From Isurus oxyrinchus (Eukaryota), in NCBI GenBank assembly GCA_026770705.1, contig JANJGN010000028.1, positions 4,092,001 through 4,156,000 on the forward strand: a DNA stretch of 64,000 nucleotides. Direction: 5' to 3'. The notes under the pieces are model-generated. The model did no database searches and was not told where the DNA came from. It was given only the letters and a program-made list of their open reading frames with translations. This document shows positions 28,907 through 47,115 of the stretch, piece by piece (the first letter of the stretch is position 1; every line of letters starts with the position of its first letter). Position numbers and translations under genes: made by a program.

Positions 28907-31900
28907 TGTTGTATTATGGGTTCTTTAGACGTCTCAGTGATGAGATCTTGCAACATGTATACTTAAACATGAAGCGTTTATTGTTAATCCTTAACTATTT
29001 ACAGATCCCAGATATTGTCTTGCATGGTGCTGCTTCTAGAGTGTTCTCTAGTCTATTGCCATGTGTCTCTATACATCATACTATGGATGAGGCTATTCTC
29101 AAGTCCAATGTTAACCCTTGCGCTGCTGAGCACCTCTACATTACAATGGCATGCAGATACACACATCCTACGACATCCCCCTTTCTTCTCCAAAGAAAAC
29201 TTCCCTCCCTTCCAACAGAGCATTTCAATGCAGTCTTTACTTGCTATCCCTCCTCCTCCGTTTCAAGTCTCTGACTTTATAAATTCAGATAGTCTTAAGG
29301 TTTGACAGCTCTTCCACATCTCGGTCTGCCATGTTTGGAGGAACAGTAATAGTGCTCTTGCATTTCTGGTGCTTGGTTATCCCCATTTGATTCACTTCCG
29401 GTGCTCCTTCCGAGTTGTGTTTCTCTTTATTAACAACCCGTCTGTGGGTTTGTCCCGTTCCTTCAGAGGGGAATGTGCACTCGTTCATTCCTAGCTTAGA
29501 CTCCAATTTTCTTGTTGCGTGGTGTCCACCGTGCTCTTGCTGGATGTATACACTTTGCAAAGGGAACCTTCATTCCCACTTGTTTCACAATCTCAGTTAA
29601 ACATCTGCTTGCTGTTTTATTTTCAAATTGTTCTGCAAGTTTATGAGTCTTTTCATTCAGCTCAGCGGCTCTCAGAACGTCCGAGACATCCAGCGCTTTT
29701 TCTTCGTCTAGTTCCTCGTACTGCAGTCAGATTTACATTTTCCAATCTTATTTTTGTCTTTTCTTCCTCTGGCCACAGTAGAACTAGGTCCTCATGCTTC
29801 AGTTTAGTTTCACTGTTGGCCAGGTCTGTCTCCAGCGAAGTTTGAACTGGTTTCAGTTCTGTAATTGTGCTACTCATGGCTTCATTATCCACTCACAGCG
29901 TGGAATGTTCTACAGCTTTTCCTTTCAATGCCTCATTTTCGTTCGACTGCTTCTTCAGCTCCTCAGTCTCTTTCTTGTAGCTTTCGGTTTCCTCCTGGAA
30001 TATGGGACATTGCTGAGTCTTCTCCACCAACTGGTTCTTCAGTTTGTTCAGAGTGACACTAAATTCATTTGCTTCTCTTCATAATATTCCAAAAGAATAA
30101 ACGTTGCCCTAAGCTGTCCTTGTAGCATGAGGATTCTTCAACAGGTTTTCCCTTGCTTTGTGAAGCTCGCTTGCTGCATCGTGAGTTTTCCTGTCATTCA
30201 GTAGAATCTCAGGTTTCTTTTGCTGTGCTGCCGTTCTGCTGTTTAAGACAGTCTTCATTTCTTTTGGTTGCTGAATGGTTATACATTCCTTTTGCATTTT
30301 ATGATTAAGGGCAATCAACTTGTCTTTCAACTGTTTATTAACCTTTTGACCTCTTGCCAATTCACTCTGGGCTTCAGTGCATCATTTTGTTGATACTGAT
30401 ATTTCCAACGCAGCTTTTTCTGGTGACGTTCAACGTCCTTTTTAACTCCTCATGTTCTTCCATGGCTACATATTAATTCTTCAAAGAGTCTTTCAGGATT
30501 GCAACTCTTTTGCATGTTTTTACTGCCTACTGTTTTGCCTGGCTGTATATCTGGTTGAGTTTTCCCAGCTCCCACTTTGATTTCCCAACTATGGAGTTGA
30601 GGGTTGTTATTTCCTTCTGATACCTTTGTGTTGTCTCTGAAATTTGTTTGTTCAGATCGTCAACAGCTTGGTTCATTGAAGGCTTCAGTTTATCATGCGT
30701 TTTCAAAGATATACACTCAGCTTGAATCTTGCATTTCAAATCTTCCAGTCCAGCTCTGTGAATGCTTTCTTGTTAAACAGCTTCATTTACTTTTTGTATG
30801 TTCTGCTTCTTTTGAGTTTCCTCAGATATCTTTCCTTCATTCATAGCCATCTGTTCACTCTGCACTTCCATCTGCAGCCCTCACTCTGGGGTCTTTTGGC
30901 TCCCTCTCTCTGGGGTTTCCTGTTTCTCTCAGTGTTTTACTGGGAGTCGGCCACTTTCTGGGGTCTCTTTTTGCCATTGGTGCTTTATCAGGCGTGTGCT
31001 AGACTTTCTTTTCTGGTCTGTGCTCTCCTCAACTTGAAATATCTTTCAAAGCCTTTTAACATGTCACCAAATATTGTTGAGTATCAATCTATACATTGGT
31101 TGTGGAATACATCACCAGCATGTGAACCAAACAGGAATAAAAACTTATCTACTTGTAATTCTCCTGTAAACTAAAAATTGTCTTCTCCCGGACTCCCATT
31201 CTTTGGTCAGGTTCAGCTCTTTCCATAGCAAAAAATGTGTCTGGATCTTCTAATATGCTGATGCTGTCTATTGCTTTTTTTTCCCTTGTAGTTACAGTTT
31301 TAAATGTTGTTGCCCCTTTAAGGCTGTCAGTGCTGTGACCATTTTTTTTCACTGGGGCTGTCAGCAGCTGCTGGTTCTGGCTCTGTGATTCTCCCACCCT
31401 TTTACAGGATGCCCGTGACCGTGGGCCATTTTCTTTAAACTTTAAAAAAAAACTACTGCAGCAATTTCTTCTCTGGGGCCCCGAAAATCAATTTCAAGGC
31501 ATGTTTCTTCAAGGTGGTTTTGTTTCTTCTCCTGTGACAGATTTCTTATTTCTTTTCCTATTTTGGCAGGCTCCCTGGTGATTGTGGGCCTGTTTTTTTT
31601 TAAACCTTTAAAACTGCAGCGACTCTTTTCTGGGTAGTTCTCTCCCTTTTTTTAAAATCTGCAGGTACTTTTTATTTTGAATGTCCCGCACTTTGAACAT
31701 TTCGGCAGGTGTGCGCTTTTTAAAATGGTTATAAGCTGTTAACTCTGCAGCAATTCATTCTTCTATACAAGGAGCCAGGGACCCGACTGAAAGGGATTCC
31801 CTTTCATTTAAACTCTGCAGGCTTTTCCTTTTTTTTCAACTGCGCTCTGCAGGTTTCTCTCTTGACTCTGCCAGCTGATCTTTATTTAACTTTTTTTTTA

Positions 31901-32732
31901 CTTCAGTGCAGCATAGCCATGTTATATGGTGCTGGCCAGCGTTACAGCTTTCTCCATCTGCCCCATGGATATGCTGAGCTGCAGGACTTCCACCTAATTA
32001 TATAATGCAGGTACAGCTTTTTTTTGTAATTTCTGCTCACTGTTTTGTGAACTGACCAGGTTCTTTGACTCTGCGTCATTTAGAGTCTTACAATGCTTTT
32101 GTATTTTTGCTCTCCCTCTTGTGAACTGACCAGTAATCTTCACACTGCGTCACTCAGGGTCTTGCCATTTTTTTGTATTTCTGCTCACTCGTCTTTGTAA
32201 TCTGATCAGATTTTTTTCCTCTTTAGTTTTATTCAAGGCATCTTGCAATGGACTTCCACTCATTCTGGTGGATTCCTCAACTTCTAAGTCTGCAGTGAAG
32301 CTTCTTCAGCTGTTTCTTCACTTTTTCTTCTCAGGCGCATGTCTCTTTAGTTCGGCTTCAGAGTTTTTGATATCTTGGGATGCTGAGTTCATCCTGTAAA
32401 ATACCACCTTTCATATCACTGCTGCTGTGGACCAGGTTGTGTTATGGTGCCAGCTGCGGTGTCTCTCGCTGATGAGACCTTAAGACTTGTGTGTTTAAAC
32501 ATGAACCATTTATTGTTAGTCTTTGACTATGCACAGATCCCATGTACTGTTTTACATGGTGCTGCTCCATGCAGGTCGGCTGCTTCTACAGTGTTCTCTC
32601 GTCTATTATCATGTGACTTCTATCCATCATGCCATGGGCGGTGCTATTCTCCAGACCCATGTTAACCCCTGCTCTGCTAAGCATCTTTACAATGACAATG
32701 GCATGCAGGCACACACACAGCATCCTACAACA
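28907..32732 (-). mobile_element. Non-autonomous LTR retrotransposon, copy 1, carrying a UACA-like coiled-coil ORF
   Basis: Direct repeats at 32435-32732 (5' LTR) and 28907-29175 (3' LTR). Outer ends TGTTGTA...TACAACA. AATAAA in both LTRs. PPT GGAGAAGAAAGGGGGA (29176-29191) abuts the 3' LTR. TGG-starting PBS-like sequence at 32417-32434. It splits a CR1. Confidence 0.85.
29220..30850 (-). pseudogene. Degenerate UACA/RAI14-family coiled-coil fragment inside LTR element 1
   Basis: Frameshifted ORFs such as 'IQAECISLKTHDKLKPSMNQAVDDLNKQISETTQRYQKEITTL' and 'MQKECITI...EILLNDRKTHDAASELH' are collinear with recalled UACA 'MKNHYVPLKVSEDMKKSHDAIIDDLNRKLLDVTQKY...KEIIAL' and 'EYISL...EILANYRKGQEEIVTLH'. 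Confidence 0.75.
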
Positions 32733-33312
32733 AGGAGGGTTTAAAATTGATAAGGAGGTGGTATTGAATAGTCTGTCTGTATTTAAAGTGGTTAAGGCAC
32801 CAGGACCAGATGAGATGCATCCAAGGATACTCAGGGAAGTGACAGTGGAAATTGCAGAGGCACTGGCCATAACTTTTCAGTCTTCCTCAGTGTCAGAGAG
32901 GTGCCAGAGGAGAATTGCAAACATTACACCCTTGTTCAAAAAAGGCTGTGAAGATAAACCCAGCAACTACAGGATCTGTATCTTCAGTGGTGGGGAAGCT
33001 CCTAGAAACAATAGCACAGGACGAAATGCAAGTCACTTGGGCAAAAGTGGATTAATTAAGGATTCAGCATTCCAACCATCATGGATTTGTTAAAAACAAA
33101 AACAGAATTACCCTTCCCAGGGTCATGAGGACTCGAAACGTCAACTCTTTTCTTCTCCACCGATGCTGCCAGACCTGCTGAGTTTTTCCAGGTAATTCTG
33201 TTTTTGTTTTGGATTTCCAGCATCCACAGTTTTTTGTTTTTATCTTTTTGGATTTGTTAAAGCCAATCATGCTTAGCTAACTTGCTGGAGTTTTTTTTCT
33301 GAAGAGGTACCA
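32733..33312 (+). mobile_element. CR1 ORF2 remnant, right flank of LTR element 1
   Basis: 'KAPGPDEMHPRILREVTVEIAEAL...ANITPLFKKG..DKPSNYR'. Confidence 0.9.
33095..33248 (+). mobile_element. Short Penelope-like terminal insertion with an inverted 5' stub
   Basis: 13-bp TSD TGGATTTGTTAAA (33082-33094 and 33249-33261). The 5' 'aaaacaaaaacagaattacc' is the inverse of the internal 'ggtaattctgtttttgtttt'. Confidence 0.85.
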
Positions 33313-34899
33313 GAGTATTTCTTGACGTCTTGCATAGTTGCAATGCCATGGACCAAATGTGCCCCACAGAATTCTTACAAAAAGGAAATCTGTTCAATAG
33401 CCCAGTTTGTACAGAAAGCTGCATATTTAATCAAATTCAAATTTGAGAAATATCAAAGACCATGTAGCAATAAGTTCAATATTTAATAAAAAATACAAAA
33501 TCTCATCTGAGGAGAAGTGTTAAAGATGGCAAGGCAGCTGCTAGTGACAGTGAAAATGGAGACATTCATTCTGCTCCAGACTGGGAGACACTGCTCATTA
33601 GCAACAGAACAGATTTGGCAATCACATTTCCAGCAGCTCTTTCTGACTGCGATCTCTGGAGATTTCCAATAGCTTTTGGAGCAATTTTACATCAACATCA
33701 AAATCAAGAAATTCCAGCCTGAGAGTCGAGTCCATTGAGTCGAAATTGATAGGGTGTGGCTCTTTCTGTTTCCCTCCTTGCACATGTTGCCTGACCTGTT
33801 GAGTATTTCTAGCAATTTCTGGTTTTATTTAAGGCAAATGGAGAACCTGGTCTCATAAGTCACTGAGAAACAACACATTTGATGCGGAGATCCTTCCTGA
33901 CAACTTATTATGAAGAATCCTCTTGGATTGCATGCTTAAGTCCTGGAAAAATAGATGAGAACTTTCTACTCTACAACAAGCTCGTGAATCTCAGGAACCA
34001 AAACCATTAATGGTTATGAACCAATTAATGATATCATTAATTTATTTGGATTGGGTATCGGTGTGGTTTGTCTCATTAACAGAGAACATTGTTAAGTCGT
34101 TCGGATAGAGTAATAAACACCACCAGTACTACCCTGAGATCCCAGCTGAATGTTTGGTCTGGGTCAAGTTCATCAGGATCGGCTCGAGGGGTAATGGGGA
34201 ACATGCCACAACTTGACTCTGCACCTCAAAGTGCGAAGGAATCCAAAACATTCCTCTGGATCAACAGCACAGACTGGAGGAATTCAATACAGGCCAACAG
34301 ATGTTCCCTTCTGATCTACAGCAACACCTGCTTCTGTGCTCAAGTTTGGAGACAAGTTGTAAGCCTATTTTGGGGAAACCTATGAGACGAACGAGAGCAG
34401 TTTATAGCATAGGAGAAGGCCATTCACCCCATCATACCTGTACTAGCTCTCAGCAATCCTCTCCCCTCACTCTCTGTAACAATTTTAAATAAAGGACACC
34501 TCATTACCGATTCCTCAAACGGAGACAACAATTGTTTCCTTTTCACTTGATCAAATCTCTTCATAATAATAATTAAAAACTTTATTAAGCCTCGTCCAAT
34601 ATATTCCCTGCACCAGTGGGTCGTCCAACCATTCAAGTCTGCCCTCAGAATGGGAGATGCCACCCATTCTTGGTGACTATGGCTTTAATGTTCTGTCTGT
34701 AACGGGGTTCTGAAAACAGAACAATACTGCAAATGGCCCAAGCAATGCCTTATACAAAATGTCACACATCTTTTCTCTGCATTCCATGTCCCAACTTATA
34801 AAACTAATCATTGTGCTTTTTCAATGCCTTCTCTCATGCCAAGAACGCATGAAAAATCTAAAAATTTTGTTTCTCTTCCATATTCTCTTGTTTAAATTA

Positions 34900-35836
34900 T
34901 TTTTTTTAATGGACAATTGCTGGGCTGATAAAATGGCCTCAGCTAGTCACATGCTGGTAGTTTTGTAAAACTCTGAGCACTTCCAATGGACAAAAGCAAC
35001 CTCGTCAATCTCCCGGAATGTGACTTGTATGAACATTCCAGCCAGTCAAACACAAAGAACTAGCAGACGAGGTGCCTGCACCAACCAGCTCTGGGCAAAG
35101 GCAGAGCTATTTGTGACTTCTCATCTCCAGCATTGTGCTAATGGTTCTACAGTCACCTGCTCAGAACAATGGTTTTAACAAGGGGGCATTGTCAGCTGAA
35201 TGTCTCGACCCAAAACCACCCTGTCGCATGACTGAGAATTGAGCTGTTTAAATTGCTTTAATTATACAGCTTTTAGTAACCTTAGAAGAGATGCCAGCAC
35301 ACCAAGCTATAGCAGCCAGCCTCTGACCTCCGTCTCCATCTAAACCTGGTCTCTAGAAAGAATCCTGCATTTCACCTACAAAGTGAACTAATTCCCGGAA
35401 TACAAGAATACTCTGCTGCAGCTTCACCAGCCTCAGCCTTCAACCGAGCTCTGAGGAAAAGACTTCCACCAGAAAAATCCAACTTCCTCAGACATTGACT
35501 TACTGGACTCTGGACTCATGTGAAACAATAATTCTTTTATTGTGTGTGTGTTCTTTGCCCTGTATCCCTCTTTTATTGTGTGAACGTAGTGACACCCACT
35601 CCCCACATTTTGAGTGTGCGTAAAATAAACTAACCCTCTGATTTTACCCTATCTCGGGTTTGCTGTGGGCTTATTAAGAGGGGATTGTATCACTTCAAAA
35701 CTGAGGGGTTGGAGAAAATACGCCACCACATAGAGAGGGGGAAAATCAAAAATCAAAAACAGCTTTCCATTTACAGGCAGGCGGCAAGATCACAAATCAG
35801 GGCTGTTTTAAATTAAACCCCCTCCTGCCCATAACA
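34900..35836 (+). mobile_element. Probable solo or partial LTR inserted in an old minus-strand CR1
   Basis: Ends ...ATAACA, has AATAAA at ~35623, and interrupts CR1 sequence; the 5' boundary and TSD are unresolved. Confidence 0.45.
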
Positions 35837-36249
35837 CTTCATTTACCTACACTTGCATTCGAATTATTTTAACTCCAAGGGCAGGTCACTCTATTTGCCT
35901 ACACACACCACAGTGTCTCTCCAGAAAGTGGAAAACACACATTGCTTCACCTTTTTCCCCAAAAATTTGTCTCTTTACACTTCACACTAAATTTTATCTG
36001 TCCATTTGACTAACCTGTCTAAGTGGTTCGGAAGATTTTTACAATCCCACCTCACTGATTATCACACCTTCCACTTTTGTCTCATCAGAAAATGGTGTAC
36101 TTTTTAACCTGTATGCGAAATCACGTAAATATATCCTGACAACAAAATACAATATACTAGCCCCCCTGGCACAACACTGCCAACAGTCCAAGCCCAGCCC
36201 CTCACACAAACTCATGTCCCTTAATCAACATTCCAGCCAGTGCTGATAG

Positions 36250-37065
36250 GAACTTGGTGGAGGAGCTGGTAAAATGGTGCGATAATAATTTGCTTAAACT
36301 GATCAAAACTAAGATGAAAGAACAGTTAAAGACTTTAGGAAAAAGAAGTTAATAATATTGTTCCTGTGAAGGTTTGTCATGGGGACATTGAAACAGTCAC
36401 TAACTACATGTACCTAGGTGTCAAAGTAAATGATAAGTTGAGTTGCAGGGAACAGTGTACAGCTGTGGAGGCCGAGGGACATACTCCATGATGTTGCCTC
36501 ACAAAATAAAATCCTTAGCTGTAGATGCTATAAACATGAAAGTCCTCTATTGGGCAGGAGTTGAGAGTGCAATCCTTGTCGGATGTCTCTCCTGGTGCCG
36601 TTGCCTTCAGAAAGCAGACATTGGTACAAAGGGTACAGAGATTGTTGAACCAGGCTGGAAGGGTATTTAATGAACAGATCTTTCTGGAGAAATCGACTCT
36701 CAAAAGAATTTTGACAAGAGTAAAGGGCGTCACGAAGAGTGAAAATCACTCCATGCCTCAGCATTACTGTTGGATGTGTTCAGGGAAAAGGTTACAATCT
36801 CTCAGGTGCTGGACAATTCGATTCCTGACGTCGTTCCCTATAAGGACTTTTAGCAGGAATTTGATGTGTGAACGAGGGTGGGACTCACTGAGTGATCATT
36901 TTAATGAATTGGAATAGTTTTTAATACATATCTTAAAGTTGATCTTAGTGCTAGGGTCATTTTCTTTTATTTATAAATGATAACAATAATTTTTTAACAA
37001 ACAAGCAAGGTACCAGAAATGAATTTCCTTACGGACAATAAAGTAATTGATTAAATTGATTCATT
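36250..37065 (+). mobile_element. Rex1/Babar-like non-LTR retrotransposon 3' remnant
   Basis: Translates to LVKWCDNNLLKL..TKMKE..DFRK and NYMYLGVKVNDKLS; ends with AATAAA and a short tandem ATTG tail. Confidence 0.55.
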
Positions 37066-37247
37066 CTCTTTTATCCAACATATATTTTGTTGAATGATGC
37101 TGTATGTGCCTTCCTGCCATTGTAATGTAAAGGTGTTCAGTGGGGCAAGGGTTAACATGGGACAGGAGAATGGCACTGCCTATGGTATGATGTATGGAGC
37201 CACATGGTAATAGACTGAGAGAACAGTATAGAGAGAACATTCTAGAA

Positions 37248-37702
37248 CAGTGTTCTTCATTGCCATGCCCTCGAGACTGTGGCGCCTCCCAATGACACTA
37301 AGTGCAGTTCCCCGACTCCATCCAACCATTTTCAGTAACCACTTTACCCTCAGGAAAGGTCGCGACCTGGAACCCAGCCCAGCATTATATCCCTGTTCAT
37401 TTTGTTTTTAACATGAAAAAATGTAAACTGAGCCTATCAAAAGTCAGCCTTCTTTATGAGTCACATTGACCACATGCTACAATGTGCTCCAATAAGAATA
37501 TCTAAGTATGTGCGTGGTACAGTAACAGTTATATTACCATAGCAACCACCATAGAACTAGCAGAGAATTGAACAGTTGGTGTCATGTATTTTTTTGGCAC
37601 AAGTGAATGACTGCAGTAGTAAGCAATAATAATTTAGCAGGCTCCCACACTGCAGGCTTTTTGCTAAAGTGGCCTTTGCTTGAAAAATAGTGAAGACCAC
37701 TG
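37248..37702. mobile_element. hAT (Charlie-like) MITE inside the 5' LTR of copy 2
   Basis: TIRs CAGTGTTCTTCA and TGAAGACCACTG. The left 8-bp site TTCTAGAA fits the Charlie NTCTAGAN preference (right copy diverged). Absent from the other three LTRs. Confidence 0.75.
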
Positions 37703-39071
37703 CTGCAGGAGCAGCCTATCTGCATGGTGAACAGCACCATTCATGACAGCAACCTGGGATCTGTAAACAGTTAAAGGCTACCAATAAAGGCTTCATGTTT
37801 AAACACACAAGACCTCACTCATCTCTCAGACACCACTGTATCAGGGAGACACCGTAGTGCAACATAGTTGGCAGTGGCAGACTGCAATGTGATATGAAAG
37901 GTGGCAGCGTTTTATATGATGAACCCAGAACAATGTCCCAAGGTCTGAAACGTTAAATGCAGCTGAAGCTGGGCTAAAGAGATGTGCACCTCAGAAGAAA
38001 AATTGAAGATACAGTTGAAGAAGCTTCACTGCCGAGTGAGCGGAAAGCTATCACAAGACCGCTGAGTGACGCAGCGTGAAAAGGGAAAACTAACCTAGTC
38101 AGATCACAAAGAAAGGCCAGCACAAATACAAAAATTGCAAGATCCTGAGCGACGCTGAGTTAAGACGCTTAGTTCGATCGCAAGATGGTGTGCAAATCTA
38201 CAAAAATCGCAAGACCCTAAGTGACACGGTGTGAAGAATACTGGACAGTTCACCAGATGGTGCGCAAACATTATAAAAAAGACGGGGGGGCTGTCCTGCG
38301 GCTTAGCAGATCCACAGAGCAGCTGGAGGAAGGCTGCCTGCTACAAATAAAATCTGCAAAGCTCAGGAAAGGAGAACCTGCAGAGAAACAAAAGGCAGGC
38401 AGGGCAGAGGAGAACCTGCAGAGTTAAAACATGAGAAACATGCAGAGCTTAAAAAAAAAGCAGCCCTGCAGAGTTTTTAAAAAAAATCACTGCAGGTTTG
38501 ACAGCTCATGGCTCTAAAAACAAAAGCAAAGCACCTGCCAAAACTCCCAAAACGCAAGGCTTTCAAAAGGAAGCACAAAGTTAAAAAAATGGAACTGAAG
38601 AATCGCCCCGTAGAGGCTGTAGAAGTTTTGAGGCCCACGATCACCTGGGAGCCCAACAAAACCCAAAAACGTGTGGGAAACTGACAGCACAGAAAGCCCG
38701 AGTGAATAAAAAAATGGTTATTGCACCAAGTCTTAAAGTAGTATCAAAATTTAAAATGGTAAATACAGGGAGACAAACTGGCCCTGGGCAGCAAATTAGA
38801 TGGGCAAGATGCATTTTGAATAAGGAAATGGCAGCACCAGGCACAAGAGTGGTCAAGCACACCCCCAATACAGCACCAAGGCCAACTAGAGACCCCAGTG
38901 AGAGGGCAACTCCCAATAAAGTGCCAATGTCAACAAAGGGTCCTGAGAGAGGGCAACAAAAGACCAATAGGAAGGCCAGCAAAAGACGCCAGAGAAAGGG
39001 CAAAAGGCCCCAGAGTGCCAGAGCCAAAAATTCCAGAGCAAGGGAAGCAGATGGCAGTGAGGAGTGAATAG

Positions 39072-40690
39072 ATGGCTATGAATGAAGGAAAGCTATCGGA
39101 GGCAACTCAAAAGAAGCAAAATGTGCAAAATGTAAATGATGCTGTCCTACAAGAAAATGTTCGCATCAGAGCTGTATTAGAAGATTTGAAGTGCGAGATT
39201 CAAACTGAGTATATACCTTTGAAGATGCATGATAAACTGAAGTCTTCAATGAACCAAGGTGTTCGAGATCTGAGCAAACAAATATTCAGAGACAGCACAA
39301 AGATATCAGGAAAAAATAATGACCCTCAACTCCACAGTTGGTAACTCAAAGCAGGAGTTGGGAAAACACAACCAGATGTTCAGCCAGGCTAGGCAGCAGG
39401 CAGAAAAGGCAAGCAAAACACCTGCAACCTGCAAGGCTCCTTGAAGAATCAATATGTAGCCATGGAAAAACATAACGAGCTAAAAAGACATTGAATATGG
39501 CTTCAGAATAAGCTGCATTGGAAATATCAGTAGCAACAAAATGATGCACTGAAGCCCAGAGTGAGTTAGCAAGAGGTCAACAAGAAAATAAACAGTTGAA
39601 AGAAAAACTGATTGTCCTTAAAAGTCAAATGCAAAAGGAATGCATAACCATGAAGAAACAAAGACTGTCTTAAACAGCAGAAGAAACGCAAGGAGACTCT
39701 ACTGGATTACAGGAAAATTCACGATGAAGCAAGCGAGCTTCACAGAGGAAAGGAAAGCCTGTTGAAGAATCTTCACATGCTACAAGAATCTCTCAAGTCA
39801 AAGTTTGTTCCTCTGGGAAATTATGAGGAGAAGCAAAATGAGTGTCACTCTGAACAAACTAAAGAACCAGGTGGCAAAGAAGACACAGCAATGTTCCATA
39901 ATCAAGGAGGAAGCCGAAAGTTACAAGAAACAGACTGAAGAGCTGAAGAAGCAGTCGAATGACAAAAGGAAAAGCCATCAAACTTTCCAAGCTGCAAACA
40001 GATAATGAAACTATGAGAAGCACAATTACAAACTGAAACAAGTTAAAGTTTCACTGGAGAACAGGCCTGGCCAACAGTGAAGGACAAGGACAAAGCTCTG
40101 CTGCAGACAGAGAAACAAAAGACAGAAATAAGATTGAAAAATGTAAATCTGACACTGCAGTACGAGGAACTAGACGAAGAAAAAGCGCTGGATGTCTCGG
40201 ACGTTCTGAGAGCCACTGAGCTGAATGAAAAGATTCATAAACTTGCAAAATGATTTGAAAATAAAACAGCGAGCAGACCTTTGACTGAGATTGTGAAACA
40301 AGTGGGAATGAAGCTTCCCTTTGTGAAACGTATATGTCCAGCAAGAACATGGCAGGCACAACAGGGAAAAAAGCTTTGAGAACACTCTAGGAATAAACGG
40401 AGTGCACATTCCCTGCGGAAGGATTGGGACAAATCCACAGGCACAATGAAAGCAGGCAGGTTTGTTAACGAAGAGAAACAGAACTTGAAGGAACACAAAA
40501 AAAAATGAATCAAATAGAGATAGCCAAGTGCCAAAAACAGAGTACGACTATGACTCCTCCGAACATGACAGACCGAGATGTGGAAGAATTGTTAAACCTC
40601 AAGACCGTTTGAATTTATAAAGTCAGAGACTTGAGATGGGGAAGCAGGGATAGCAAGCAGAAGATTGTATTGAAAATAGTTGGAAAGGAA
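39072..40690 (+). pseudogene. Degenerate UACA/RAI14-family coiled-coil fragment inside LTR element 2
   Basis: Segments 'EIQTEYIPLKMHDKLKSSMNQ', 'LKNQYVAMEKH', 'ETLLDYRKIHDEASELH..LQESLKSKFVPLGNYEE' and 'LKNQVAKKTQQCSIIKEEAESYKKQTEELKK' are collinear with recalled UACA 'MSNQYVPVKTH', 'EILANYRKGQEEIVTLH..IQECIKVKYAPIVSFEE' and 'LKDQLSEQTQKYSVSEEEVKKNKQENDKLKK'. Multiple stops and frameshifts. Confidence 0.78.
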
Positions 40691-41811
40691 AGCTTTCTTT
40701 GAGAAGAAAGGAGAGCGTTGTATAATGCTGTACCTGCCTGCCTGCCATTGTAATGTAAAGGTGTACAGCAGATCAAGAGTTAACATGACACAGGAAAATA
40801 GCATTGCCCACAGTATGATGCATAGAGTCACATGGTAATAGACTCTGAGAGAGCAGGCTAGAGAGAACAGTCTAAAAGCAGCCTACGTGCATGGTGAACA
40901 GCACCATGCATGTCAGTAAACTGGGTTCTGTAAATAGTTAGAGGTTCACAGAAATGGTTCATGTTTAAACACACAAGACCCTCCCAACAATACGCCACAA
41001 TGACCGAACCCATATTACAACGTAATCAACAAACCCCCTGTGAGGCACATTATCAAAGTCTTCTGGAAATACATACAGACTGCAATGAATGTAAACATAC
41101 TCTGATGTATTTATTCCTGAATCACATTGTGCTGATATCCTTGACACGATGTATCCCAATATGGCCACAAACTTCATGGTTACAAATTTCACCTCAAATT
41201 ATGGATTCTGAGAGTTTGCCCACAGGTGACATTACACTAGTTAGTCCAGTTACCAGCATTATATTAACTGTTCAGTATCTTACCGGTGTTACATGACTTA
41301 GTTATAGTTATCAGGTTTGTCCTTCTCTCCCATTTTAATTGCTTACTCCAGTACCCAGCACAATGTCAATATGTGAGGAGGATTGTCAAGTTGTAGTCAA
41401 ATCCTCTGCTTCCATCTCTTCATTCTTCAAACCACAGGAAGAAGCTGTCAGCGTCCAGTGAGTGACACACTTGAAATAATGTTCATTTCTCTGAATATTT
41501 CCTTTTTGACAGTCAACCCTAACAGCGGTTCTATATTCTTCAAATACACTAACATTCTCATTTCTATCTGTTTCTAACTCTAAGCACTTCTACGCACTCT
41601 TTGTTTATTCTATTAGTATTAATCTGCTTACAGGCAGCTACTTCCTTTTATATTATCTGTTAGTATTTACTATTCCATTCCCTATCAACCCTCCTAATCT
41701 CTCACCACTCACGACCATTTCACACTCCTCATAATTGCCTTGTGCTATTGAACATAAGCATCAGGTCAAACCATGTGTAATATATAGATAACATTATATA
41801 CATAGACACGC

Positions 41812-45677: not shown

Positions 45678-47115
45678 GAATGGCCAATGTTGTTCCATTG
45701 TTTAAGAAGGGTAGCAGGGATAATCCAGGAAATTACAGGCCGGTGAGCCTTACGTCAGTGGTAGGGAAATTATTGGGGAAGATTCTTCGTGACAGGATTT
45801 ACTACCATTTGGAAGCAAGTGGGTGTATTAGTGAGAGGCAGCATGGTTTTGTGAAGGGGAGGTCGTGTCTCACTAACTTGGTCGAGTTTTTCGAGGAAGT
45901 GACAAAGATGATTGACGATGGAAGGGCAGTGGATGTTATATACATGGATTTCAGTAAGGCCTTTGACAAGGTCCCTCATGGTAGACTGGTACCGAAGGTA
46001 AAGTCGCACGGGATCAGAGGTGAGCTGGCAAGATGGATACAGAATTGGCTTGGTCATAGAAGACAGAGGGTAGCAGTGGAAGGGTGCTTTTCTGAATGGA
46101 GAGCTGTGACTAGTGGAGTTCCGCAGGGATCAGTGCTGGGACTTTTGCTGTTTGTAGTATACATAAATGATGTGGAGGAAAATGTAACTGGGCTAATAGT
46201 AAGTTTGCAGACGACACTAAGGTTGGAGGAGTTGCAGATAGTGAAGAGGATTGTCAAAGGATACAATAGGATATAGATTGGTTGGAGACTTGGGCGGAGA
46301 AATGGCAGATGGAGTTTAATCCGGACCAATGCGAGGTAATGCATTTTGGAAGGTCTAATACAGGCAGGAATTATACAGTAAATGACAGAACCCTTAAGTG
46401 CATCGACGGGCAGAGGGATCTGGGTGTACAGGTCCACAGGTCACTGAAAGTGGCAACGCAGGTGGATAAGGTAGTCAGGAAGGCATATGGCATGCTTGTC
46501 TTCATTGGCAGGGGTACTGAGTATAAAAGCTGGGAAGTCATGCTGCAGCTGTATAGAACCTTGGTTAGGCCACACTTGGAATATTGTGTGCAATTCTGGT
46601 CGCCACATTACCAGAAGGTTATGGAGGTGTTGGAGAGGGTGCAGAGGAGGTTTACCAGGATGCTGCCTGGTCTGGAGGTTATTAGCTATGAGGAGAGGTT
46701 GGAGAAACTCGGATTGTTCTCACTAGAGCGACGGAGATTGAGGGGCGACTTGATAGAAGTTTACAAAATTGTGAGTGGCGTGGACAGAGTAGATAGTCAG
46801 AAGCTTTTTCCCAGGGTGGAAGAGTCAATTACTAGGGGACATAGATTTAAGGTGAGAGGAGAAAACTATAGAGGAGATGTGCGGGGCAAGTTTTTTACGC
46901 AGAGGGTAGTGAGTGTCTGGAATTCGCTGCCAGAGGAGGTGGTGGAAGCAGGTACGATAGTGGTGTTTAAGAGGCAGCTTGACAAATACATGAATAGGAT
47001 GGGAATAGAGGGATATGGACCCCGGGAGTGCAAAATGTTTTAGTTTGAAGGCAATATGATCGGCGCAGGCTTGGAGGGCCGAAGGGCCTGTTCCTGTACT
47101 TTTCTTTGTTCTTTG
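45678..47115 (+). mobile_element. Young 5'-truncated CR1 LINE (RT), same family as 8114-9441
   Basis: ORFs 45680-46276 and 46282-47043 with PGNYRPVSLTS, DFSKAFDKVPH and GVPQGSVLG; TTCTTTG tail; approximate TSD TGAA. Confidence 0.95.

Follow-up and report, generated by a model that had tools for sequence, protein, structure and literature searches.

A decayed non-autonomous Ty3/Gypsy family of Isurus oxyrinchus carrying pieces of the host genes UACA and TPR

The window, 64,000 nucleotides of Isurus oxyrinchus DNA (contig JANJGN010000028.1), holds two elements, A and B, both old and broken, which belong to a non-autonomous Ty3/Gypsy (Mag-type) LTR family of high copy number. The reading we favour, at a probability of roughly 0.6, is that host UACA and spliced host TPR sequence replaced the middle of gag-pol in this now decayed family, and that the reading frame was kept in cis. 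An earlier note on this DNA had a host coiled coil take the place of gag-pol, which is right in kind but incomplete: the middle only was exchanged, in frame, for pieces of two host genes.

Two broken copies and their family

As the earlier note had it, the elements are separate: A occupies 28907..32732 on the minus strand (3826 bp) and B 37088..41022 on the plus strand (3935 bp), and they are 78% alike over 1951 nt. Element A starts with its 5' LTR (32435..32732, minus), next to a decayed primer-binding site (about 32416-32434), and ends with a C-terminal pol tail plus polypurine tract (29176..29558, minus; tract about 29176-29191) and the 3' LTR (28907..29175, minus). In B the 5' LTR (37088..37862, plus) is likewise followed by a decayed primer site; the pol tail and tract (40332..40715, plus) include a tail ending ...DRLNL* at 40620 and a tract at about 40700-40715, and the 3' LTR lies at 40716..41022 (plus). 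The paired LTRs reported earlier are real (74% over 254 nt in A; 82% and 85% in B for the two halves of a split 5' LTR), as are the termini TGTTG...TACAAC(A/G) and the purine tract ahead of each 3' LTR. The ends follow the TG...CA rule, the last base of B having decayed to G. The insertion of about 460 bp that splits the 5' LTR of B (37248-37709) was absent from the first reading. Each element is flanked by a decayed 5-bp target site duplication (TSD) in which 3 of 5 letters agree. Both had been placed inside CR1 remnants. A does interrupt a repeat, since uninterrupted copies span its site (three colinear pairs, and also contigs that skip A); this repeat is probably CR1. For B the case is a motif, the flanks reading ...DFDNVPHRGF... 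in antisense, presumably CR1; no colinear uninterrupted copies across its site were found among the hits searched.

How large is the family? Searches gave 5158 and 5196 first-look candidates dispersed over many contigs, and all 150 that were scored matched at E<=5e-41, which bears out the multicopy claim; the family likely counts thousands of copies. Of the conditions that would have refuted the earlier reading none holds: the matches are specific, and of the best 20 among 40 listed LTR matches 11 border this interior and 9 stand alone as solo LTRs, while not one borders the pol region of the relative L184 (see below). Among 24 delimited copies, 6 have 5-bp TSDs matching at 4-5 of 5 positions, against 3.3% of mismatched pairs, while 4-bp duplications occur in 2 of 24 and 6-bp ones in none; this sample is what remained after seven copies without a findable end were dropped and five skipped (the repeat was not the LTR, or the copy was a segmental duplicate). 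Solo LTRs carry a perfect 5-bp TSD in 3 of 9 cases. The primer-binding site is clear in relatives only, where in two copies 17-18 nt pair up with the 3' end of host tRNA-Leu, and is badly decayed in A and B (at least 5 edits in 14 nt). No intact copy was found; every copy examined is broken by private changes including many stops, and all copies seen are dead. Nor is this the picture of a domesticated host gene, which would be one intact, orthologous ORF maintained by purifying selection.

The absence of reverse transcriptase (RT) and integrase stands: gag-pol P0015 had no tblastn match in the window, and A and B lack protease, RT, RNase H and integrase. The claimed absence of gag fails for the family and for A, which has a gag N-terminal remnant of K02A2.6-like gag-pol type (31027..31161, minus; iE 2e-12); none was found in B. 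A gag profile built from 10 natural pieces matches the N-termini of K02A2.6-like RT-RNaseH-integrase polyproteins. But what moved such an element? An autonomous partner had been suggested, and one of 30 integrase loci examined, L184, is a pol-bearing relative: its tail and LTR match the family at 74% over 408 nt, and the gag linker is shared as well. Its domain order is gag, RT, RNase H, integrase. No intact helper was found, and we infer that the helper came from the lineage of L184. The top 30 rve-family loci belong to other families. Copia and BEL, suggested by the termini, are ruled out by gag and domain order; Helenus/Ajax TRIMs were set aside as lacking an internal ORF, and the parts of the literature consulted mention no sharks for them. 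The Mag lineage of Ty3/Gypsy, as described in PMC3286476, has 5-bp TSDs, a tRNA-Leu or Ser primer and short LTRs. The shark family resembles it in the 5-bp TSD, tRNA-Leu primer site and short LTRs, as well as in its K02A2.6-like gag start and polyprotein tail (same source), and differs in lacking protease, RT, RNase H and integrase. Mag is a candidate label, drawn from structural features and K02A2.6-like names in elements that hold no RT.

Captured UACA and TPR sequence

The resemblance to UACA is real and specific: only 3 of 529 candidates matched, all of them shark UACA (58, 55 and 51%), the best being Carcharodon UACA (58%, E=1e-45). The earlier identification was sound; the extent was not, as the captured part covers about 1.0 kb (in B 39087-40038) rather than the last 1.6 kb, and piece X, a TPR remnant and the pol C-terminal tail follow it. 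In A the UACA-derived part (29851..30835, minus) corresponds to host exon nt 859-1084, 1181-1856 and 2298-2409, with 102- and 450-nt deletions, 79.6% identity to the host and 5 stops in the host frame. In B (39087..40038, plus) it corresponds to nt 859-1082, 1181-1856 and 2335-2409, at 79.7%, with 2 stops and frame-breaking indels. Within the host exon nt 859-2409 alone are repeated in the genome, nt 1-840 being single-copy. Pfam gave generic coiled-coil matches for the UACA-like pieces, all below cut-off. Coiled-coil piece X (A 29667..29850, minus; B 40039..40215, plus) had no homolog in the homolog search and uninformative atlas matches, and its alignments to the UACA exon score mostly within the range of codon-shuffled controls. 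A linker of about 130 nt precedes UACA in the family; like piece X, it was not matched to a source.

The second host gene, not in the first reading, is TPR, which encodes a nuclear-pore (nuclear-basket) protein. Between 16 and 26 of 69 copies run across each of six exon junctions of host TPR (AG/GT ends), and the exons so joined stretch across 17 kb of host DNA. In these relatives the TPR exons meet precisely at the splice sites; such intron loss, by which retrocopies are recognised, shows that TPR was captured from mRNA. No exact junction is left in A or B. The remnant in A (29559..29666, minus) consists of two pieces from different host exons that abut across a family-wide 186-nt deletion, its length measured on the spliced mRNA; that in B lies at 40216..40331 (plus). 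PF25481 scores over cut-off in one element piece and in the host TPR exon. A homolog search with the TPR piece found nothing among proteins of up to 2000 aa, TPR itself being likely longer, and a PDB search found nothing.

Could these pieces have been copied as DNA instead, the UACA exon by recombination, or are the copies processed pseudogenes next to unrelated LTRs? All captured UACA sequence lies within one host exon and so carries no splice evidence, a point in favour of such copying. For TPR, however, the spliced exons largely refute it; furthermore, every host piece is in sense and in frame, the unit is bounded by LTR pairs, a primer site and 5-bp TSDs, and the LTRs go with this interior in 11 of the best 20 matches (of 40 listed). 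We regard copying at the DNA level as very improbable and infer that UACA, too, was captured as mRNA. Template switching by RT onto co-packaged mRNAs would have brought UACA and TPR into the element, and mobilisation in trans by a helper's enzymes would have raised it to likely thousands of copies. The capture likely dates to the early lamniform lineage. Later internal deletions have 9-17 nt overlaps of identical words at their joints. The original element-mRNA switch points adjoin piece X or the linker, so microsimilarity is known for the later deletions only. The elements were presumably once expressed from the LTR; contigs from a run presumed to be RNA lie over the UACA part but differ from it at about 7-13% of letters, and we do not count them as a sign of expression.

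The reading frame and what may have kept it

In older subfamilies gag, UACA, TPR and the tail all lie in one open frame. The UACA frame has no majority stop over about 560 nt upstream (10 copies) or about 800 nt downstream (19 copies), where the other frames have 13-31 each; from the private nonsense rate about 4 would be expected, a hand calculation and an upper bound. The frame was measured by interval-wise modal lengths; end-to-end distances modulo 3 between distant anchors proved too noisy from private indels, and whole-region alignment columns, which slipped the frame, were not used. Each of the nine shared deletions has a length divisible by 3 (102, 126, 147, 210, 450, 33, 96, 117 and 186 nt; chance 0.03-0.10), and when four between-source joints are added the frame is preserved in 13 of 13 (p about 0.013). 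Under the null, 55-79% of the microhomologies in these coiled-coil sequences would preserve the frame anyway, so the in-frame deletions are suggestive, not overwhelming. One subfamily is permuted; 4 of 10 copies have its joint exactly in frame, and private indels disturb it in the others. Five copies form a group that ends at exon nt 2409, and there the propagated frame slipped, at an interval backed by 2 of 4 copies only. The window's own subfamily stays open for about 470 nt beyond UACA, yet 71% of 38 copies share a stop at UACA codon 880; its gag regions are variable and partly deleted, so it spread without the full frame.

Was the frame selected at all? Though made by template switching, the captures may have been passive cargo: a packaging signal, the LTRs, the primer site and the purine tract would have sufficed for spread, with codon-biased microhomology joints and short-lived master lineages leaving the frame intact. 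The null in-frame share of 0.55-0.79 suits this account, as do the shared stop in the window's subfamily (of those sampled, the one with most copies), the only about 16 element-lineage residue changes in about 430 UACA codons before the older expansion, and the one testable branch, older to younger, where N/S is 0.80 of neutral (p=0.57; synonymous changes unpolarised). In the branch comparisons of UACA copies 91-93 codons each fell below a 70% threshold and were left out. This near-neutral branch and the shared stop give no sign of selection on amino acids. Yet all 13 joints are in frame, the frame extends into gag on one side and the pol tail on the other, and the expected majority stops are missing. 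Unselected cargo is a possible explanation, clearly less probable than a frame kept in cis.

Under the favoured reading, one translatable gag-UACA-TPR-tail frame would have been kept by selection in cis during spread, because uninterrupted translation would stabilise the element RNA, or because the nascent Gag N-terminus would carry its own RNA to assembling particles. The coiled coil would then be a translated spacer, free to vary in length and residues. Lengths differing by hundreds of nt, the permuted subfamily and the near-neutral N/S suggest a spacer over a specific function.

Alternatively, a Gag-N/UACA/TPR protein may have had a specific job, for example as a long stalk on the particle, or through its TPR coiled coil pairing with host TPR and loosening nuclear retention of unspliced RNA. 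Both captured genes and the two unassigned pieces encode coiled coils that continue the Gag frame, and according to PMC3258255 TPR holds back unspliced CTE-type retroviral RNA from export, its N-terminal region being important. In the same paper, though, TPR N-terminal fragments rescued retention, not release. The TPR N/S of host versus element, 0.23 of neutral, also points to function, but it includes the host branch, indivisible without an outgroup, with changes unpolarised, and 26 residue changes are fixed in 223 codons; moreover, the window's subfamily has most of TPR deleted and a stop upstream. Behind the same value there could be genuine selection on the protein of the element, against the spacer. 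A working fusion protein seems unlikely from these sequences, and it is equally doubtful that a stolen TPR N-terminal coiled coil in a Gag fusion helped the element to thousands of copies.

Precedents and meaning

Acutely transforming gag-onc retroviruses have defective, helper-dependent genomes in which host mRNA is fused in frame to a truncated gag. Unlike them, the shark family has no env, is not a retrovirus, spread by germline retrotransposition and gives no sign that its cargo acts on cell growth. The maize element Bs1, as reviewed in PMC13317346 and PMC7264820, is a non-autonomous LTR element with several host-gene segments in a chimeric ORF, and is alike in both respects; the shark case is a vertebrate Gypsy family with coiled-coil cargo only and high copy number. 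In the LTR-mediated retrocopies of Tan et al. 2016 (PMC5131818, seen in part), a stretch of the ORF that lies between the two LTRs is exchanged for host mRNA sequence. The likeness extends to microsimilarity at joints, several parental genes per unit and further retroposition as non-autonomous elements. Those retrocopies are young and at one or few sites, whereas the shark family, with at least 150 scored copies and likely thousands, expanded long ago, split into several subfamilies and carries gag and pol tail fused in frame. The mechanism is thus already known (Tan 2016; maize Bs1), and the scale, gag fusion and TPR capture are unusual.

In animals, most known cases of host mRNA caught by LTR elements are young and of low copy number; the shark chimera became a successful family, datable against the shark phylogeny. 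Its gag/host/host/pol-tail chimera left a fossil series of in-frame deletions and one permutation, which makes the need of non-autonomous LTR elements for translation in cis testable by counting. For annotation it is a warning: likely thousands of UACA-like and TPR-like matches in the Isurus oxyrinchus genome are transposon copies.

The two elements and their family

As the earlier note had claimed, the window (G000:C28:4092001-4156000, in a genome of 4.98 Gb) holds two LTR elements that are 78% alike across 1951 nt: A (minus strand, 28907-32732) and B (plus strand, 37088-41022). LTR pair identity is 74% in A and 82-85% in B, and the 5' LTR of B is interrupted by a ~460-bp insertion (window 37248-37709) that has no match among the loci compared. 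The proposal that each element interrupts a CR1 remnant holds in part: A lies within another repeat whose intact copies elsewhere cross the site (three colinear pairs), and the flank of B is putatively CR1, by a motif. Contigs spanning the 3' junction of B, with about 2-3% divergence, come from two public runs of a different sample, so this insertion is shared. Both elements have a ~74-bp tandem repeat in their 5' untranslated part (window 32022-32188 and 38054-38271); 5' tandem repeats occur in some Mag elements (PMC3286476). Another repeat, 1.25 kb long, is present in the window as two young (96-97%) inverted copies separated by 36 kb (8189-9442 and 45796-47048).

How large and how old is the family? 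First-look searches returned 5158 candidates by DNA and 5196 by protein, which are not copy numbers; all 150 protein matches scored reach E<=5e-41, in agreement with the multicopy family proposed before, and we infer a size in the thousands of copies. Median LTR pair identity is 80-82% (14 pairs in each group), so the family is long dead. The concern that the LTRs might occur independently of the interior was not borne out among the best 20 of 40 LTR matches, where 11 adjoin the family interior, 9 are solo LTRs and none has the pol region of the relative beside it. In the 24 copies whose ends were delimited automatically, 5-bp flanks agree at 4-5 of 5 letters in 6, vs 3.3% of mismatched pairs, and tests for 4-bp and 6-bp duplications gave no signal; perfect 5-bp duplications flank three of nine solo LTRs. 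In two copies the primer site is the complement of the host tRNA-Leu 3' end; the genome has 65 occurrences of the corresponding tRNA motif, and tRNA-Leu was called for three of four checked. At five loci (L073, L186, L191, L203, L205) the LTR 3' end has one or two extra units of primer-site-like sequence plus repeated terminus, so in part of the family the primer site was absorbed into the LTR; in copies with such ends the target-site duplication lies outside the last unit. Loci L082 and L083 (G000:C21, ~10 kb apart) are near-identical and share their flanks, so they represent a segmental duplication rather than two insertions.

Short LTRs, a Leu primer and 5-bp duplications are features that agree with the Mag lineage (PMC3286476). 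A profile from 10 natural pieces upstream of the UACA part matched 91 proteins. The subset examined, to which the top match and some others do not belong, contains an F-box protein as well as K02A2.6-like gag-pol polyproteins that the profile matches at the N-terminus; these carry RT, RNase H and integrase in the order typical of Gypsy, and one of them ends in a tail resembling the element's. A gag remnant lies at 31027-31161 in A and none was found in B, so the absence of gag noted earlier stands for B only. Among 30 integrase loci, one pol-bearing relative (L162/L184), itself broken and without a 5' LTR, shares the tail, the 3' LTR (74%, 408 nt) and the gag-derived linker; a second has part of the LTR in common, nothing more. 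At L133 (G000:C44:1599742) the integrase match falls within a 1165-aa open frame; the LTR element there is nearly intact and belongs to a different family.

Capture of UACA and TPR

What is the host sequence? An unbroken 157-aa piece at locus L008 matches shark UACA only (58, 55 and 51%; E 1e-45 to 1e-36; 3 of 529 candidates), which upholds the UACA-like segment claimed from the sequence. The large exon of host UACA lies at C25:4881192-4883918 and encodes aa 408-1316; its identity to Carcharodon UACA is 99%, which points to a lamniform shark as the host. Across 59 mapped loci, A and B included, nt 859-2409 of this exon are the sole part used; nt 1-840 are single-copy in the genome. The window's subfamily retains nt 859-1084, ~1181-1856 and 2298-2409, less than the older subfamilies, and one subfamily is permuted, with nt 2331-2409 placed before 925-2272. 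A ~130-nt piece precedes the UACA part and piece X, a coiled coil, comes after. Between gag and UACA lie purine-rich short tandem units (window 30900-31000, minus; 38860-39030, plus), whose number differs from copy to copy in the window's subfamily.

Downstream of UACA, older copies carry a second coiled coil above the Pfam Nucleoprot-TPR cut-off. The host TPR gene is on contig C16, and the exons matched are spread across 17 kb with AG/GT ends; in the elements they are joined without introns at six junctions, and 16-26 of 69 copies run across each one, which shows that TPR was captured from spliced mRNA. Some TPR persists in 64 of the 69 copies; A and B each keep ~110 nt, across a 186-nt deletion joint and not an exact exon junction. 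That the captured TPR sequence acted as a working decoy (cf. PMC3258255) is quite improbable.

Lamniforms and the Mustelus lineage split in the Jurassic. Of 31 UACA sites where the host lineage has changed after that split, the element retains the old state at 26 and shows the host's at 4; of 30 sites specific to Mustelus, it agrees with Mustelus at one. The mostly old states point to capture early on the lamniform branch. Capture by LTR elements is already known in animals (PMC5131818) and in maize Bs1, and host domains are reported to have been incorporated into transposon proteins, some under selection (PMC3597677). No description of this family was found in full-text literature on shark LTR retrotransposons with UACA or among the other papers listed; a repeat-library entry could exist in supplements.

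Reading frame and origin

When modal lengths are used from anchor to anchor, majority stops are absent from the UACA frame both upstream through gag (~560 nt, 10 copies) and downstream through TPR (~800 nt, 19 copies), vs 13-31 in each other frame. Two natural ORFs run unbroken from gag into UACA, at L040 and L047, and copies of the window's subfamily keep the frame open for ~470 nt beyond UACA. All nine deletions common to at least two copies are multiples of three. This weighs less because microhomologies in these sequences fall in frame in 55-79% of cases, giving p=0.03-0.10 for the nine, and about 0.013 once four between-source joints are added. Two further observations count against a kept frame: a stop at UACA codon 880 in 71% of 38 copies of the window's subfamily, and, in a 5-copy group, a propagated frame slip at an interval backed by two of four copies. 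Passive cargo, where the captured sequence would simply ride along, we hold unlikely.

No selection on amino acids is demonstrated: the older and younger groups are separated by 23 replacing and 11 silent fixed differences, 0.80 of the ratio among private (neutral) changes (p=0.57). The host-vs-element ratios are lower, 0.55 for UACA (p=0.02) and 0.23 for TPR (p=3e-8), but selection on the host gene contributes to them. Between the two groups, X and tail differ at only 2 of 60 codons and the UACA part at 34 of 213; constraint may act on X and tail, or the younger master may have acquired its UACA part from a copy that had decayed before.

A Mag-type element with a single gag-pol frame would have co-packaged host mRNAs, and template switching by reverse transcriptase, as described in PMC5131818, would have replaced protease to integrase with coiled-coil sequence. 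The chimera, retaining LTRs, primer site and purine tract, would have been copied by a helper; further switching would have produced the deletions and the permutation, the latter presumably from two RNA templates, and the frame would have been maintained while length and residues drifted. We put this account, including a need for translation in cis, at about 60% as the best overall explanation; a frame kept under such drift fits that need better than a specific protein function.
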